Source: Desulfobacterales bacterium (GTDB lineage Bacteria > Desulfobacterota > Desulfobacteria > Desulfobacterales > UBA5852). From it: a stretch of 64,000 bases of DNA. The notes below the pieces were generated by a model. The model did not search any database. It saw nothing but the letters and a program-made list of their open reading frames with translations, and was not told where the DNA came from. Positions 49,639 through 56,808 of this stretch are shown in pieces; the first letter of the stretch is position 1; each line of letters starts with the position of its first letter. Made by a program: the position numbers and the translations under genes. The stretch is taken from positions 512,001-576,000 of the forward strand of contig CAXXVS010000003.1 in assembly GCA_963674755.2 (NCBI GenBank), read 5' to 3'.

Positions 49639-49761
49639 GACCTATGCCGCTGCTGCAATGATTGTGGCCATCGGCTCTCACAAAATATTATAGACCCCAT
49701 CGGCATGACCCTGCACCATGGCGACCATCCCCCATCCGTTTCAACCAAAGGAGAATTAGGC

Positions 49762-50538
49762 ATGCGACTGCAAAGCAAGAAGACCTTGAAGATCCGAGAC
49801 AAGATTCTCGGCGGGCCTTTGCCCCTGATTTGTCTGCCTCTGGTGGCCACCGATCAGACAGCGCTTCTCGCGCAGGCGGAGGAAGTGTGTTCATTCGATC
49901 CGGATGTCATCGAGTGGCGGGTGGACAAGTTGGATACGGTTCTGGATACGGACGCGGTCTTAGCGGCCCTGGGTGCGCTTCGGGAATGCATCGGCAATAT
50001 TCCGATGATCTTTACCTGCCGGGTGATTCATGAGGGAGGGTTCCAGGAAATCGCGGCCGAAGACCGTCTTCTTCTTAACAAGGCCGTCATCGCGTCGGGC
50101 CAGATCGATCTGATTGACACGGAGATATCCAACGGCGAGGCCATGGTGGCCGAAATGAAAGCGGCCTGCCGGAAGGCCGGTTGCCCGTTGATTTTATCCT
50201 ATCACAATTTCGATGAAACCCCGGATGAGGCCTTCATTCTGGATCGCTTGGTCACAGCCGGCAAACTGGGAGCGGATGTCGCCAAGACGGCCGTCATGCC
50301 GAAAACGTATCGAGACGTGCTGACGCTCCTCAGCGCCACCTATACGGCGCGGACCGAACGGCTGGACATCCCCATCATCACCATGGCCATGGGGGAGGAA
50401 GGGGGCATCACGCGGATCGCCGGGGGGTTGTTCGGCTCCGACCTGACCTTTGCGCTGGGCAAAGCCAGCTCGGCCCCGGGGCAGATCCCCATTGCCGATT
50501 TGCGCAAGGCCTGGTCGGCTTTGCCCTTTAATCTCTAA
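49762..50538 (+). CDS. aroD: Type I 3-dehydroquinate dehydratase
   Basis: EWRVD, FTCR..EGG, SYHNF, AKTAVMP, MAMG, SAPGQ. Confidence 0.93.
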   Translation: MRLQSKKTLKIRDKILGGPLPLICLPLVATDQTALLAQAEEVCSFDPDVIEWRVDKLDTVLDTDAVLAALGALRECIGNIPMIFTCRVIHEGGFQEIAAEDRLLLNKAVIASGQIDLIDTEISNGEAMVAEMKAACRKAGCPLILSYHNFDETPDEAFILDRLVTAGKLGADVAKTAVMPKTYRDVLTLLSATYTARTERLDIPIITMAMGEEGGITRIAGGLFGSDLTFALGKASSAPGQIPIADLRKAWSALPFNL

Positions 50539-50590
50539 GGGTCAATTCCCCGCCGCTTGCGGCGGGGTCGTTCATGAGAAAGGAAACACC

Positions 50591-51451
50591 ATGGCCGTAG
50601 TGGATGTCAACACGAAACTGGTCGGGCTGCTGGGCAACCCATTAGGGCACAGCTTTTCGCCGGCCATGCACAACAAGGCCTTTGAGACCCTCGGGCTGAA
50701 TTACTTCTATCTGCCCATCGAAGTGACGGCGGAAGATCTGCCCACCGTGGCGGCCGGCATCGCCAAAATGAACTTTGCGGGCTACAACATCACGATCCCC
50801 CACAAGATCCGCATCATGGACTGTCTGGATGCCATCGACCCCCTGGCCCAGGCCATCGGCGCGGTCAACACCGTCGTTCTGGAAAACGGCCGTGCCACGG
50901 GCTACAACACGGACGGCGAGGGCTTTGTCCGGTCCCTGGAGGCGGAATCCGGGACCAAGGTGGACGGGAAATGCCATTTTATCCTCGGTTGCGGAGGGGC
51001 GGCCCGGGCCATTGCCATGACCCTTGCCGCCAAAGGCGCCCGGAAGATTTTCCTCTGCAACCGCACCGAACAGAAAGCCCATGATTTATCCGCTGAAATC
51101 AACGCCAAGGTCAGCCCCTGCAGCGAGGTGGTACCGGTGGAACCGGCCCGCATCGAGGCGGCCGTCCAACAAGTGGACGTGCTCATCAATACCACCAGCA
51201 TCGGCATGCACCCGGAAGAGGACCGCATACCCATCGACGGCAACCTGATTCCAGGGGGTGTGATCGTAAGCGACATCGTCTATAATCCCGCCCGGACGAA
51301 GCTGCTGCGGGTGGCCCAAGAAAAGGGCTGTCAAACCGTCCCCGGGTTGGGGATGCTGGTCTACCAGGGGGCCGAGGGGTTCCGTAAATGGACAGGAGCC
51401 GAGCCCCCCGTAGAAGTCATGTTCGGGGTCGTTCGGGCGCTGAAAGGATGA
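50591..51451 (+). CDS. aroE: Shikimate (or quinate/shikimate) dehydrogenase
   Basis: HSFSPAMHN, NITIPHK, GAVNT, NTDG, GCGGAARA, NRT, DIVYNP, GMLVYQG. Confidence 0.92.
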   Translation: MAVVDVNTKLVGLLGNPLGHSFSPAMHNKAFETLGLNYFYLPIEVTAEDLPTVAAGIAKMNFAGYNITIPHKIRIMDCLDAIDPLAQAIGAVNTVVLENGRATGYNTDGEGFVRSLEAESGTKVDGKCHFILGCGGAARAIAMTLAAKGARKIFLCNRTEQKAHDLSAEINAKVSPCSEVVPVEPARIEAAVQQVDVLINTTSIGMHPEEDRIPIDGNLIPGGVIVSDIVYNPARTKLLRVAQEKGCQTVPGLGMLVYQGAEGFRKWTGAEPPVEVMFGVVRALKG

Positions 51452-51497: not shown

Positions 51498-53081
51498 TTA
51501 CGCCTTGAGGTTTTCCAATGTCTCCATCACCTGTTCGCGTTCTACCGTATCGCTCACGAAGACATCGCCGATGGCGCGGAGCAGAATAAATCGTATGCGG
51601 CCCGAGGCCGCCTTTTTGTCCCGCCGCATGGCCTCGTAGACCCGGAACAAATCGATGTGAGCCGGAATGCGAACGGGTAGCCCGGCATCGACCAGAACCG
51701 GCTTTAGGCGCTCCTGTAGCTCCGGCGCGCAATGGCCCAGACGGGCCGACAGACTGGCGGCCGCCACCAGTCCCATGGCCACGGCCTCCCCATGGCGGAT
51801 GGTGTGTTCGCAGACCTGCTCGATGGCGTGGGCGAAGGTGTGCCCCAGGTTGAGCAGGTTGCGGCGTCCGCGGTCAAAGGGGTCTTCTTGCACAATCCTG
51901 ATTTTGACCTGAATGGCTTGGGCTACCAGGGCCTGCAGATCCGGCAGGGGCGGCACCAGGGTCCCGGCTTCCCGGGCCCAGCTGCCGCCCTCGATTTGGG
52001 CGAACAGGGCCGCGTCATCGATCAGACTGTGTTTGATCACTTCCGCCATGCCGGAAGAAAATTCCTCCGGTGAAAGACTTTGCAGGGTGGCCACATCAGC
52101 GATCACCGCGGTGGGCTGCTTGAAGGCGCCCACCAGGTTCTTGCCCTGGGGAAGATTGATGCCGGCCTTGCCGCCGATGCTCGTATCCACCATGGCCAGC
52201 AGGCTTGTGGGGCAATGGACCAGGTCCACCCCCCGCATGTAGACCGCCGCCACGAATCCGGCCAGGCCGCTGATGACCGACCCCCCCAGGCCGATGATGG
52301 TGCCGTTGCGCTCGAAGCCTTTTTCGATCAGCTGTTCGCAGATGGACTGCACCATGGTAAGCGTTTTATGCTGCTGTCCGGGGGGCACTTGGATAACCGC
52401 ATCGACCGGACCGCAGCTTTGTGCGTACAAAGGCCCGGTGTTGGTGTCCGTGATGATCGCCACGGGGCCGGCGATGCCCGCCAGATTCTTCACAAAGGGC
52501 AGCAGGCCGCCGCCGACGATATACTCGTAGTGTTTGCCGGCCCCGGTGATCGACACGCGCTGGTCCGGGTTGGCCTGAAAGAGGCCGATCAGGTTATTGG
52601 TGACCGCGTCGGGCGTTTTTTCGGATGTCACCATCTGGGGGAACTGGCCGTAGTCTTCCTGGCGCTGCTGCATCAGCTCGACGATGCGTTCCATGGGATC
52701 GGGCACTGCCAGCAGGGGCCGCTCATGAGTGGTGTCTCTGGAGACCCTGTCCAGGATTTCTTCCGGGGTGGCCACCAGGCAAAAGACGCGCCCCGTGCGG
52801 CTAAGCGCCGCGGCGTTGCCCGGATCCAGCATCAGGCGCCCGCCGGTGGAGATCACCACTCCCTGCCGGTCGGCCAGTTCGCGGGCCACCGCGCCCTCCA
52901 TTTCGCGGAAGGCCACTTCCCCCATTTCCTGGAAGATTTCCGGAACGGTCTTGCCGGCCCGCTCCTGGATCAGTTCATCCGTATCGACGAAAGCGTAGTC
53001 CAGCTGCTGGGCCAGCTTCTTGCCCACGGTGGTTTTGCCGGTCCCCATGAAGCCGGTCAAAACGATATTGGGTCTGTCCAT
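51498..53081 (-). CDS. Shikimate kinase / 3-dehydroquinate synthase fusion (AroK-AroB)
   Basis: N-terminal GFMGTGKTT, DTD, GEVAFR, STGG, RPLL; C-terminal DTSIGGK, KNLVGAF, NLGHTFAHA, HGEAV, DKK. Confidence 0.9.
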   Translation of the reverse strand: MDRPNIVLTGFMGTGKTTVGKKLAQQLDYAFVDTDELIQERAGKTVPEIFQEMGEVAFREMEGAVARELADRQGVVISTGGRLMLDPGNAAALSRTGRVFCLVATPEEILDRVSRDTTHERPLLAVPDPMERIVELMQQRQEDYGQFPQMVTSEKTPDAVTNNLIGLFQANPDQRVSITGAGKHYEYIVGGGLLPFVKNLAGIAGPVAIITDTNTGPLYAQSCGPVDAVIQVPPGQQHKTLTMVQSICEQLIEKGFERNGTIIGLGGSVISGLAGFVAAVYMRGVDLVHCPTSLLAMVDTSIGGKAGINLPQGKNLVGAFKQPTAVIADVATLQSLSPEEFSSGMAEVIKHSLIDDAALFAQIEGGSWAREAGTLVPPLPDLQALVAQAIQVKIRIVQEDPFDRGRRNLLNLGHTFAHAIEQVCEHTIRHGEAVAMGLVAAASLSARLGHCAPELQERLKPVLVDAGLPVRIPAHIDLFRVYEAMRRDKKAASGRIRFILLRAIGDVFVSDTVEREQVMETLENLKA

Positions 53082-53154
53082 AGCGTTCAATCCCTTCGGG
53101 CCGAATTTGTCAAAGGTGGTCTCCGGGTTTGCTTGGGGAGGGTCGGTCGATACA

Positions 53155-54177
53155 TCAGCATCCCGGCAATTCGCGCAACTCCGCCAGGGGGATGTCGGTG
53201 ACGATGCAATTCCCCAGACCATTCAGCAGCACGAAATGCACGCTCTCCTTTTCCCGCTTTTTGTCTTTGCCCAGGGCTTCCAGAACCGCCTTCTGGTCGA
53301 AGGTTTTGCGCAGCGGCAACCCCAGCTGGGCCAGCAAGTCTTGCAGCCGCTGCTCCTCGTGAGCGGTGATCAGACCGCGCCGCCGGGAAAGACGGGCCGC
53401 CAAGACCATACCGATACTGACCGCCTGGCCGTGGGGCACGCCAGTCACTTTTTCGACGGCATGCCCGAAGGTATGGCCGAAATTGAGTTTGCGGCGCTCC
53501 CCGGCTTCCTTCTCATCGTGGTTGACGATGGTGGACTTGATGACCAGCGAGTCATAGACGAGACGTTCGATAACCTCCCGGTCGAGGGCCAGGGCCAGGG
53601 GGGCGTTTTGCTCCAGATAGGCGAACATGTCGGCGTCGGCAATGGCGGCATGTTTGACAATTTCGGCCAAGCCGCATTGCCGCTGTTCTTCCGGCAGGGA
53701 GGGCAGCATTTCCAGATCGCAGAGGACGAAGTCGGGTTGATTGAACGTGCCCACCATGTTTTTATAGCCGCCGAAGTTCACCCCGTTTTTGCCGCCCACA
53801 CTGGCGTCCACCTGGGCCAGAAGGGTGGTGGCCACAAATCCGAAGCGTACCCCCCGCATGTAGGTCGAGGCCACAAAGCCGGTGATGTCGCAGACGATGC
53901 CGCCTCCGATCCCTACGATGCAGCAGGAGCGGTCGGCCTCAAGCTGCATCAGTTCATCGTAGATCCGAGTCACCGTATCGAGGGTCTTGATCGTCTCCCC
54001 GGAGCCGATGGTGATCACATGGCCGGCAGGGAACTGGTCGGCGTAATGCCGGTGCACGTTTTCATCCGTGATGATGATGGGCGGCCGACTTGGCAGATGA
54101 CGGGATAAATGGCGCAGGGGCTCCCCCACCAATAAGGTGGACGAGCCCGAAGCCCCCTGGATCTGGAGCTGCTTCAT
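53155..54177 (-). CDS. aroB: 3-dehydroquinate synthase
   Basis: GETIK, GGGIVCDITGF, QVDASVGGKNG, KNMVGTF, AEIVK, LNFGHTFGHA, HGQAV. Confidence 0.93.
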   Translation of the reverse strand: MKQLQIQGASGSSTLLVGEPLRHLSRHLPSRPPIIITDENVHRHYADQFPAGHVITIGSGETIKTLDTVTRIYDELMQLEADRSCCIVGIGGGIVCDITGFVASTYMRGVRFGFVATTLLAQVDASVGGKNGVNFGGYKNMVGTFNQPDFVLCDLEMLPSLPEEQRQCGLAEIVKHAAIADADMFAYLEQNAPLALALDREVIERLVYDSLVIKSTIVNHDEKEAGERRKLNFGHTFGHAVEKVTGVPHGQAVSIGMVLAARLSRRRGLITAHEEQRLQDLLAQLGLPLRKTFDQKAVLEALGKDKKREKESVHFVLLNGLGNCIVTDIPLAELRELPGC

Positions 54178-54247
54178 AAGAACGAAACCCTTTTTATCAT
54201 GTGGTCCGGGACGGCGCCCGGCATCGGCGATGAAGAACTTACCGGCA

Positions 54248-55327
54248 TCAGGAGGCCCGGTCGAACTGATCCGCCCGGACCTGCTTGAGCTTGGCATGGG
54301 CGCTGAGCACCAGTTCTTCGGTGCTTTCCCAGGAGATGCATTCGTCGGTGATGGAGACGCCATACTTCAGGGCATCGCGGTCGCCGCTGAATTTCTGATT
54401 GCCTTCGTGCAGATTGCTCTCCAGCATGAGACCGATGAGCGCTTCGCTGCCGTTGACCACCTGATCGATGACATTCCGCCAGACGATGGCCTGGCCCTGA
54501 TATTTCTTGTGACTGTTGGCATGGGAGCAATCCACGATCACCGCTTCGGGCAACCCCTTGGTGATCAGCATCAGGCGCGCTTCTTCGATGCTGATGGGAT
54601 CGTAGTTGGGCCGGCTGCCCCCACGCAATACGATGTGGCCATAAGGGTTGCCGCCGGTCTTGACGATGCAGGTCCGGCCGTCCTGGTCGATGCCCAGAAA
54701 GGTCTGGGCGGCGTGGGCCGCCACGAGTGCGTTGATGGCCGTGGACAGGTTGCCGTCCGTGCCGTTCTTGAAGCCCACCGGCATGGAAAGCCCCGAGGCC
54801 ATTTCCCGGTGGGTCTGGGATTCGGTGGTGCGTGCCCCGATGGCTGACCAGCAGACGACGTCGGCGATGTATTGGGGGATGATCGGTTCCAACATTTCGC
54901 TGGCCGTGGGCAGACCCATTTCCGCGATTTGCATCATCAGGCGGCGGGCCTTGAACAGTCCGGCATTCATGTCGCAGCTGCCGTCCAGCTCGGGGTCGCT
55001 GATCAAACCTTTCCACCCCACCGTGGTGCGGGGCTTTTCGAAATAGACCCGCATGACGAGGAAGAAGGTGTCCCGGACCTTGTCTTTCAGTTCCACCAGA
55101 CGTTGCGCATAGTCCAAGGCGGCCTTCTCGTCGTGGATGGAGCAGGGACCCACGATGGCCAGGAGGCGTTTGTCTTCCCTGTTGATAATGCGCTGGATGG
55201 TTTCACGCCCACCGATAACGGTTTGGCTGGCCTTGGCCGATAACGGCAGCTGTTGTTTGAGTTCCCGCGGGGGCATCAAGGGCAGGTAGTCCCTTACGCG
55301 GACGTCTTCGATGCGTGGCGCTGGCAT
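54248..55327 (-). CDS. DAHP synthase, class I-alpha (AroF/G/H family)
   Basis: VGPCSIHD, MRVYFEKPRTTVGWKG, IGARTTESQTHRE, GFKNGTDG, DCSHANS, GVSITDECI. Confidence 0.96.
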   Translation of the reverse strand: MPAPRIEDVRVRDYLPLMPPRELKQQLPLSAKASQTVIGGRETIQRIINREDKRLLAIVGPCSIHDEKAALDYAQRLVELKDKVRDTFFLVMRVYFEKPRTTVGWKGLISDPELDGSCDMNAGLFKARRLMMQIAEMGLPTASEMLEPIIPQYIADVVCWSAIGARTTESQTHREMASGLSMPVGFKNGTDGNLSTAINALVAAHAAQTFLGIDQDGRTCIVKTGGNPYGHIVLRGGSRPNYDPISIEEARLMLITKGLPEAVIVDCSHANSHKKYQGQAIVWRNVIDQVVNGSEALIGLMLESNLHEGNQKFSGDRDALKYGVSITDECISWESTEELVLSAHAKLKQVRADQFDRAS

Positions 55328-55457
55328 GGCTGGTTTCCTTTCGGGGTGGTTGCCTGGGCAACGGGTAAGAAATAAGGTTTTGTTCATCACCTTGCCGGTT
55401 AACCGCGCGGGACTAAAAAGGCCGTGGAGCGCCTCGATCGCCACGGCCTAATGAAAC

Positions 55458-55493
55458 AAAAAAAACCGCGGCGTTCGGTCCGCCAGCGGTTTT
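55458..55493 (-). terminator. Attenuator terminator hairpin
   Basis: Minus strand AAAACCGCTGGCG-GACCGAA-CGCCGCGG-TTTTTTTT. Confidence 0.88.
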
Positions 55494-55513
55494 GAAAATC
55501 GTATGTCAGGTTT

Positions 55514-55591
55514 TCAGCACACCGCGGGCAGACCGGCGTAAAAATAATAATAGCCGAAATAAAAATAGAATTTGCCCGTTACGTTTTGCAT
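55514..55591 (-). CDS. Phe/Tyr-rich attenuator leader peptide MQNVTGKFYFYFGYYYFYAGLPAVC (25 aa)
   Basis: Hand translation; 10 of 11 consecutive codons are Phe (4) or Tyr (6); lies directly upstream of the terminator and DAHP synthase. Confidence 0.92.
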   Translation of the reverse strand: MQNVTGKFYFYFGYYYFYAGLPAVC

Positions 55592-55618
55592 GCTGGTTTC
55601 CTATGATTGCTTTGGCAT

Positions 55619-55647
55619 ACGATAACGGGGGCGGGATGGATTGTCAA
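55619..55647 (-). promoter_or_regulatory. sigma70 promoter of the aro leader
   Basis: Minus strand TTGACA-N17-TATCGT, 28 nt before the leader ATG. Confidence 0.75.
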
Positions 55648-55710
55648 GGGGCATCTTGGCGTTGGCCTGCAAACGCGCCGATGGCCAATCTCTGGCCGGG
55701 ACCGGGGATG

Positions 55711-56808
55711 CTATAGTTCGCGAATGAGGGCCTTCAACGTTTCGAGCTGCGAGGGCTTCAGATCGTCGAAGGAGACCTCGATGCCTCTGGGGTTGCGGCC
55801 CACGATGATGCCCGACAGCATGAGGGTGGTTTGGGTGCGGGGGTCGGTGATGTTCAGCATCAGCTCTTCGCCCTTGGTGAATGGCTCCGAGGTTTCCAGA
55901 AAGATGCCGTCTATCCGGATAGCACGGCTTGCGGTTGAATAGGAGGCATCTTCGGTGTCGTATTCCACCAACAATTCAGGCCGGGGTTTTTCCGACACGG
56001 TTTCACCTGCCGCGACCATGACGCTGGCCGGTTGATGGGCTTCGATCCCGGGACCGAGCTTGAGAACGATGACGGTGATGTTGTCATCCCCGCCGCGTTC
56101 GTTGGCCATTTCGGTCAGTTTGCGGCAGGATTCTTCAGGCGTGGCGCTGCTATCGACGATTTCATAGATTTCTTCCGGGAAAGCCTTGTCGCTCAGACCG
56201 TCCGAGCAGATGACAAGCACATCTCCTTCCTGGAAAAGGATTTCCGTCGTGTCGGGATTTACCGTTTCGTGGATACCCATGGCCCGTGTAATCATATGGA
56301 GGTATTGCTGGCCGAGTTTGAGACCGCCTTCCGGGGCCAGAGCCTCCTGCTCGGCCATGACCGTGTGCAGGGAGGAAACGATTTCGGCGCGCCCTCCCCG
56401 CACCAGGAAGACCGGGCTGTCGCCCACATTGCTGACAATGGCATGGGTGTCGCTGAAGTAGACCGCCGACACGGTCGATCCCATCCCTTTGCAGCTCTTG
56501 TCATTCTGGGCATATTCATAGGTTTTCAGGTTGGCCCGGCGGATGGCGTAAACCAGCTGGTTGGCCTGGGAGGAGAGGTTGCGGTCGACGCCCACCATCT
56601 GGTCGGGATTTTCGGCCGAGACCAATTTTTGCATGGTCTTGCGGATGGTGTCCACCACCAGGCGGCTGGCGACCTCACCGGCTTTGCGGCCCCCCATTCC
56701 GTCCGCCACCACGTAAAGTTGGAGTTGTTCGTCGATCAGAAAAGCGTCTTCATTGCCCTTCCGTTTTTGGCCCACATCCGTTTGCCCGGCGGCGACAACC
56801 GTTATCAT
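55711..56808 (-). CDS. PP2C-type Ser/Thr phosphatase with C-terminal PilZ-like domain
   Basis: TDVG..NED, VADGMGG, MGST, NVGDS, CSDGL, GGDDNIT; PilZ-like call is weaker. Confidence 0.88.
   Translation of the reverse strand: MITVVAAGQTDVGQKRKGNEDAFLIDEQLQLYVVADGMGGRKAGEVASRLVVDTIRKTMQKLVSAENPDQMVGVDRNLSSQANQLVYAIRRANLKTYEYAQNDKSCKGMGSTVSAVYFSDTHAIVSNVGDSPVFLVRGGRAEIVSSLHTVMAEQEALAPEGGLKLGQQYLHMITRAMGIHETVNPDTTEILFQEGDVLVICSDGLSDKAFPEEIYEIVDSSATPEESCRKLTEMANERGGDDNITVIVLKLGPGIEAHQPASVMVAAGETVSEKPRPELLVEYDTEDASYSTASRAIRIDGIFLETSEPFTKGEELMLNITDPRTQTTLMLSGIIVGRNPRGIEVSFDDLKPSQLETLKALIREL

Follow-up and report, generated by a model that had tools for sequence, protein, structure and literature searches.

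A putative Phe/Tyr attenuator with two predicted serial terminators upstream of an aroF-aroB-aroK/aroB operon in a Desulfobacterales bacterium

Results

Genes and features of the locus

The window, by which we mean the whole stretch of 64,000 nucleotides that was analysed, carries on its minus strand an operon of three genes (Table 1): a DAHP synthase gene resembling aroF, aroB, and a gene in which a shikimate kinase-like domain is fused to a second AroB domain. In the fusion, TIGR01357 scored above cut-off and the kinase models below. The two adjacent AroB copies are 37% identical. On the plus strand, aroD and aroE (window 49705-51451), placed behind the gene of an IclR-family regulator, converge on the operon (51498-55327). 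A GTG start of aroF at 55444 was rejected, as it lies inside the hairpin called T2 below and the ATG at 55327 is conserved and has a ribosome binding site (RBS).

Upstream of aroF, an earlier note on this DNA had proposed a sigma70 promoter, a leader peptide with a Phe/Tyr cluster and a terminator with a U8 tail, and all three were found. The promoter is a weak match when taken alone (1 match, against a shuffle mean of 0.5); a TTGAC(A) box was seen by eye upstream of most leaders among 20 relatives. With 10 Phe/Tyr per 11 codons, the leader ORF is the maximum of the genome over 99,515 short-ORF ATG starts, the runner-up having 7. The terminator, T1 (stem 55490-55465, U8 at 55465-55458), folds at -18.3 kcal/mol (z -3.7), and none of 200 shuffles was equally stable. 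An Rfam search of 55200-55800 gave three chance-level matches (E 0.95-4.2) and no leader family. Of seven sequencing runs listed, one is RNA, and the four that were placed on the locus, this one included, consist of contigs. From the RNA run, a 91-base piece with 9 differences lies over 55382-55473; it leaves the leader uncovered, and informs neither on ends nor on expression.

Table 1. Features of the locus and of related leaders elsewhere in the genome (positions without prefix are those of the window)
Feature	Position	Strand	Basis or remark
Sigma70-type promoter, TTGACA-17-TATCGT	55619..55647	-	sequence match
Leader RBS, AGGAAA	55597..55602	-	sequence
Leader ORF, 25 aa, MQNVTGKFYFYFGYYYFYAGLPAVC	55514..55591	-	genome-wide outlier; conserved
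Control codons 8-18, 4 Phe + 6 Tyr	55538..55570	-	predicted effective sensors: codons 8-15/16
Segment 1, codons 5-7; with segment 2, protector helix 1:2	55573..55578	-
Segment 2, antiterminator strand, partner of 1 or 3	55521..55535	-
Segment 3, T1 5' arm + loop	55476..55493	-
Segment 4, T1 3' arm + U8 tail; alternative partner of segment 5	55458..55473	-
Segment 5, T2 5' arm; 11-bp relay helix 4:5	55439..55449	-	folding, -17.5 kcal/mol, z -4.0
Segment 6, T2 3' arm + U5 tail	55415..55431	-	folding, T2 -17.1 kcal/mol, z -2.4
aroF RBS	55340-55334	-
Class I-alpha DAHP synthase, aroF-like	54248..55327	-	NCBIfam TIGR00034 + NF009395 above cut-off
aroB, 3-dehydroquinate synthase	53155..54177	-	TIGR01357 above cut-off
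Shikimate kinase-like domain fused to second AroB domain (aroK/aroB)	51498..53087	-
L268:173-345, Phe-only leader, DAHP synthase-pheA operon	G000:C2:661272 onward	+
L147, Trp-rich leader, two hairpins, before class I-beta DAHP synthase	G000:C2
L145, Trp-rich leader, two hairpins, before trp operon	G000:C2
L146, FGYYW leader, T1 only, before aroA	G000:C2:1046331-1046481	-
L148, Ala-rich leader MTTLMLTSAAAAAAG..., two hairpins, before AlaC-like aminotransferase	G000:C3:1399680-1399848	-

Six segments and two terminator-like hairpins

The earlier note had also announced an antiterminator of 15 nt, interrupted by a single G-U pair and a single mismatch, and our pairing check agrees exactly: segments 2 and 3 (55535-55521 with 55490-55476) form 14 pairs including one G-U (55530/55481), plus one C-U mismatch (55526/55485), at -31.1 kcal/mol (z -5.5). 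The attenuator had been called complete; in fact segment 1 had been missed, and so had a second hairpin, T2 (55449-55415), which lies beyond the stretch claimed at the time. T2 directly follows the T1 tail and ends in a U5 tail; the terminator scan did not pick it out. From folding and pairing, the six segments can adopt either 1:2 + 3:4 + 5:6 (OFF) or 2:3 + 4:5 (ON).

Folding with the RNA masked by a ribosome at successive positions predicts 1:2, T1 and T2 when no ribosome is present, 2:3 and 4:5 when the A site is at codons 6-15/16, and T1 and T2 from codon 19 onward. Phe and Tyr codons, the YYY run included, both fall within this predicted sensing window. For this leader, the folding of alternative structures suggested earlier as a check thus has both hairpins predicted off with the ribosome stalled at codons 8-15/16.

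A leader family in the order

In 61 genomes of the order, thirty DAHP synthase loci were selected on the basis of the protein, without regard to any leader. Phe/Tyr-rich leaders, which the earlier note had suggested looking for upstream of orthologs, were present at 20 of the 30, counting this locus and one apparently frameshifted copy; two of the ten loci without a leader appear operon-internal. Scanning species genomes with a sequence pattern returned 113 matches, 22 of which were removed because they lacked a start codon or had fewer than five aromatic residues. The remaining 91 have a start codon and an aromatic cluster, and 84 of them belong, by a hand count of their names, to Desulfobacterales, delta-proteobacteria or Thermodesulfobacteriota; 12 duplicates were also removed.

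Behind 99 unique leaders, the next gene, as annotated on one representative per cluster, was DAHP synthase in 41 cases, the ADH synthase gene aroA' in 45 and chorismate mutase/pheA in 7, so that three unrelated aromatic genes share the leader family. Leader L014 is apparently frameshifted, with an early stop among its control codons, and is either an assembly error or a decayed copy. Phe and Tyr occur together in every one of the 98 intact leaders (family codon totals, Tyr 437 and Phe 298), and 51 contain Trp as well. The earlier proposal that the system ignores Trp therefore stands for the leader studied here, not for the family, nor for the genome, where another DAHP synthase has a Trp-rich leader. 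The Trp codon lies mostly 6-7 codons before segment 2, within the predicted sensing window. At this position an NGG codon is frequent, and it may pair with the CC before segment 2. A GLP-x-V-[RC] motif at the tail of the peptide is kept across the order.

Pairing and folding across the family

Alignment A1 contains 95 leaders (L014, L083, L088 and L128 were left out). Over these, pairing was 88% for 1:2, 94% for T1, 92% for T2, 90.6% for 2:3 and 94.5% for 4:5, against 31-52% in slid controls. Column conservation in segment 2 is partly built in, because the search pattern fixed part of this segment; segments 1 and 3-6 lay outside the pattern. Compensatory changes were found in the leader helices, 3 of the 8 pairs of 1:2 having two-sided changes. 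In tree-aware sign tests, among the pairs listed, 1-4 pairs were supported and none significantly, the tests being underpowered because independent pairs were scarce. Changes of a partner in the wrong direction were very rare among these pairs.

T2 had at least 7 of its 8 pairs in 79 of the 95 leaders and fewer in 16, frequencies that are inflated because part of segment 2 was set by the search pattern and because model R1 rewards two hairpins. In the protein-picked subset, which is free of this bias, it was intact in 13 of 19. Where T2 is present, helix 4:5 has all 8 pairs in 66 of the 79 leaders and 7 pairs in 11, and the T2 tail has at least 5 U per 8 bases in 73. One 4:5 position reads A-U in 34 leaders, G-C in 29, G-U in 21 and A-C in none.

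Folding the full-length leaders to equilibrium with a stalled ribosome favoured 4:5 in 24 of 94 cases, and went against the relay in 70. In staged folding, 2:3 formed first in 94 of 95 leaders and 4:5 in 79 of 79; T1 was still the winner at equilibrium in 53 of the 95 leaders, and T2 in 44 of the 79. Since the two hairpins often end up more stable than 2:3 and 4:5, most members of the family would need kinetic trapping. We judged staged folding more relevant than full-length equilibrium folding.

In summary, ribosome-mediated attenuation as first proposed is well supported by conservation, covariation and masked folding, and the architecture of four segments with one terminator gave way to six segments with two terminator-like hairpins.

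The module in the phylum and elsewhere in the genome

A covariance model was run on 151 genomes, 150 from the Desulfobacterota phylum plus this one, and matched 103 of them at E ≤0.01. The 93 loci examined, the best-scoring ones together with four matches of our own genome, have attenuator-like leaders whose control codons match the next gene. Phe/Tyr leaders precede aroA', both DAHP synthase classes, aminotransferases and shikimate kinase; Trp leaders precede trpE and trpB-like genes; Leu leaders precede leuA and leuB, and Ile/Val/Leu leaders ilvB. Two further leaders (L174, L218), with 5-8 Tyr and no other control residue, precede acetate-CoA ligase alpha-like genes, possibly for scavenging of aryl acids for Tyr. 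Three others (L153, L178, L195) are Phe-rich without Tyr runs and precede secreted-looking proteins with no NCBIfam match; by eye these resemble ABC substrate-binding proteins, and are candidate Phe transporters.

T2 was seen in 80 of the 92 sense rows of the phylum set, with a model that favours it. In these 80 rows, 600 of 640 4:5 cells were paired, against a shuffle maximum of 579, and one 4:5 pair was C-G in 48, U-A in 23, U-G in 4 and C-A in 2; a tally with 12 antisense matches included agrees with the sense-only tally (A2). By hand count, the U-A class occurs in 14 family codes. T1 stands alone at 12 loci. At six (L161, L165, L169, L180, L179, L206), the U-tract of T1 is lost and that of T2 kept, so that in these T2 must be the terminator. 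The segment 2 motif was present in 44 aromatic leaders phylum-wide, where each of the three reading frames is used (in 22, 13 and 9 leaders), which indicates a constraint on the RNA rather than on the peptide.

Our genome has three DAHP synthases, each behind a leader with two hairpins: the Phe/Tyr leader, the Trp-rich WFWW leader (L147) and the Phe-only FFFSF leader (L268). As the other two DAHP synthases carry Trp-rich and Phe-only leaders of their own, the Phe/Tyr leader can lack Trp codons. L268 has a weak T1 tail, a U9 T2 tail and another stem sequence class, with 4:5 complementarity kept as judged by eye; its fold gave T2 when segment 6 was included. Matching leaders were also found at the trp operon, the aroA operon, a CoA-ligase gene and the AlaC-like aminotransferase gene. 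At the aroA operon, the annotation covers aroA, and the genes behind it look like aroC, an aminotransferase and tyrA. The Ala run of the AlaC-like aminotransferase leader (at least 5 Ala per 10 codons) recurs in 12 of 18 orthologs (≥65% identity) and 0 of 12 paralogs (about 50%). A single tblastn query for AroA' gave no match in this genome.

Discussion

The classical features of an attenuator are present: a leader ORF with an RBS and codons for the products of the pathway, a predicted terminator, and a conserved, mutually exclusive antiterminator with its 1:2 helix. Judging from sequence and modelling, the element as a whole is real and very probably functions as an attenuator. We consider it likely that the Phe/Tyr leader, the six-segment cascade and the two predicted serial terminators form a ribosome-mediated attenuator of aroF-aroB-aroK/aroB. 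With plentiful charged Phe- and Tyr-tRNA, the ribosome would reach the stop codon and cover segment 2, T1 (3:4) would form, and a polymerase leaking past T1 would then meet T2 (5:6). Helix 1:2 would yield the same state when the leader is not translated. A ribosome stalled at codons 8-15/16 would instead cover segment 1, letting 2:3 form; segment 4, thus freed, would take up segment 5 ahead of the synthesis of segment 6, which would disable T1 and T2 alike. Coupling of transcription and translation is assumed for this phylum. Under this scheme, shortage of either Phe or Tyr would probably induce the operon, and there is good reason to expect that the second terminator would lower the basal leak.

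Dual sensing of Phe and Tyr is the step that we infer, because the known Phe/Tyr case, aroR of Corynebacterium, responds to Phe only. The attenuator might thus be real and report only or mainly Phe, the Tyr codons being passengers. In C. glutamicum, Tyr availability is described as having no effect on the aroF operon even though its aroR leader contains Phe-Tyr-Phe (Neshat 2014, as reported in the accessible part of PMC11802643). Tyr is served by two tRNA genes in our genome and Phe by one, with a single anticodon type per amino acid, and the U-rich codons may partly serve structure: control codons in A1 end mostly in U (TTT 278 to TTC 64, TAT 369 to TAC 80), whereas downstream genes are near parity (TAT 219 to TAC 244). 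Against this, 6 of the 10 control codons are Tyr and the YYY run lies where stalling is predicted to be sensed. A separate Phe-only leader serves the DAHP synthase-pheA operon here, and Tyr-only leaders exist elsewhere, which suggests that codon identity is tuned. We thus regard a Phe-only response as unlikely, and keep the Phe/Tyr attenuator as our reading.

It is likewise improbable that T1 is the sole regulated terminator, with T2 either copied from T1 or serving in pausing, processing or stabilisation, and with 4:5 arising as a by-product of the likeness of the stems. T2 does resemble T1 in sequence and ends in a U5 tail; the 16 leaders mentioned above have it in weak form or lack it, it often beats 4:5 at equilibrium, and the tree-aware tests reached no significance among the pairs listed. 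However, the T2 tail is U-rich in nearly all leaders that have T2, the deviations from pairing in 4:5 are in most cases G-U wobbles and not A-C mismatches, the stem sequence classes of T1 and T2 change together, also within this genome, and variants exist with a U-tract on T2 alone.

TnaC is an arrest peptide that senses a free amino acid. That the present leader is a TnaC-like arrest peptide sensing free aromatic amino acids through its GLPxVR tail is very improbable: the motif is kept across the order, but its nucleotides are read in all three frames, as counted above, and pair with segments 1 and 3. Least probable of all is a constitutive terminator next to a chance U-rich ORF, which the near-chance promoter match would allow and which conservation already contradicts, given the outlier composition of the leader, its conserved start, stop and spacing, and codons that match the downstream pathway across genes.

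The two-terminator attenuator that we favour has several known relatives, which were compared through the accessible parts of the papers cited. A Phe/Tyr leader on DAHP synthase is already known, and the attenuation mechanism is textbook. As is proposed for the system described here, aroR-aroF of C. glutamicum, whose leader was first noted in PMC4046766, combines a leader with Phe and Tyr codons, a DAHP synthase operon and ribosome stalling. It has three control codons, against ten here, is reported to respond to Phe and not to Tyr, and belongs to another phylum; in what was available of PMC11802643 and PMC4046766 no second terminator was seen, the comparison being made by description. With E. 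coli pheL-pheA and trpL, the leader shares control codons in a short leader, helices 1:2, 2:3 and 3:4 and a U-tail (PMC11802643, PMC4615214); as described there, those have four segments, one terminator and one amino acid, and neither gave an Rfam match here. In Acholeplasma, a uORF with Phe codons and a terminator is predicted before aroF (uORFC-13-1; PMC8632094), but this motif is from another phylum, with 24 representatives, Phe only, and one terminator in the description available.

The closest layout is that of the his operon attenuator of E. coli and Salmonella, where AB, CD and EF are the OFF helices and BC and DE the ON helices (PMC10989985, in the part available), i.e. the six-segment arrangement met here. 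In a model of that leader, as far as the accessible text of PMC1183508 goes, the extra hairpin is predicted to cut basal read-through. The his system senses other amino acids, and no Rfam His_leader match was obtained here. Its U-run is described on EF alone, whereas here the middle hairpin also has a U8 tail, which makes two predicted serial terminators; variants L161, L165, L169 and L180 have, as in his, the U-tract on the last hairpin only. Judged from sequence, what differs from his is thus a middle hairpin that is itself terminator-like, in a two-terminator layout conserved across the Desulfobacterota phylum. Lopatovskaya et al. (2010) reportedly predict attenuators in delta-proteobacteria, and may list some members of the family. 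A description of the leader family was not found in the accessible parts of the literature searched, including PMC545781, PMC2965389, PMC2659441, PMC4833913, PMC11109978 and PMC4615214; the supplements of PMC2965389, PMC4833913 and PMC11109978 could list members.

For the phylum as a whole, a broader reading may be proposed. E. coli is known for a three-isozyme DAHP synthase logic. The Desulfobacterota may use one portable double-terminator relay, chained through 4:5, with swapped sensors (Phe/Tyr, Trp, Phe, Tyr, Leu, Ile/Val, Ala), which in our genome would give an RNA-only version of the three-isozyme logic, with the present leader as a Phe-OR-Tyr gate, the variants illustrating a step from four to six segments; we see as much chance of this being right as wrong.

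The leader offers a direct way to ask if two aromatic amino acids can be sensed through a single leader, and if the basal leak falls when a second terminator is chained to the first, as predicted by the his model. A tight two-terminator switch of this kind could become a Phe/Tyr biosensor part. For the phylum, the family annotates function by regulon, its leaders standing before aroA', aminotransferases, transporter-like proteins and CoA ligases.
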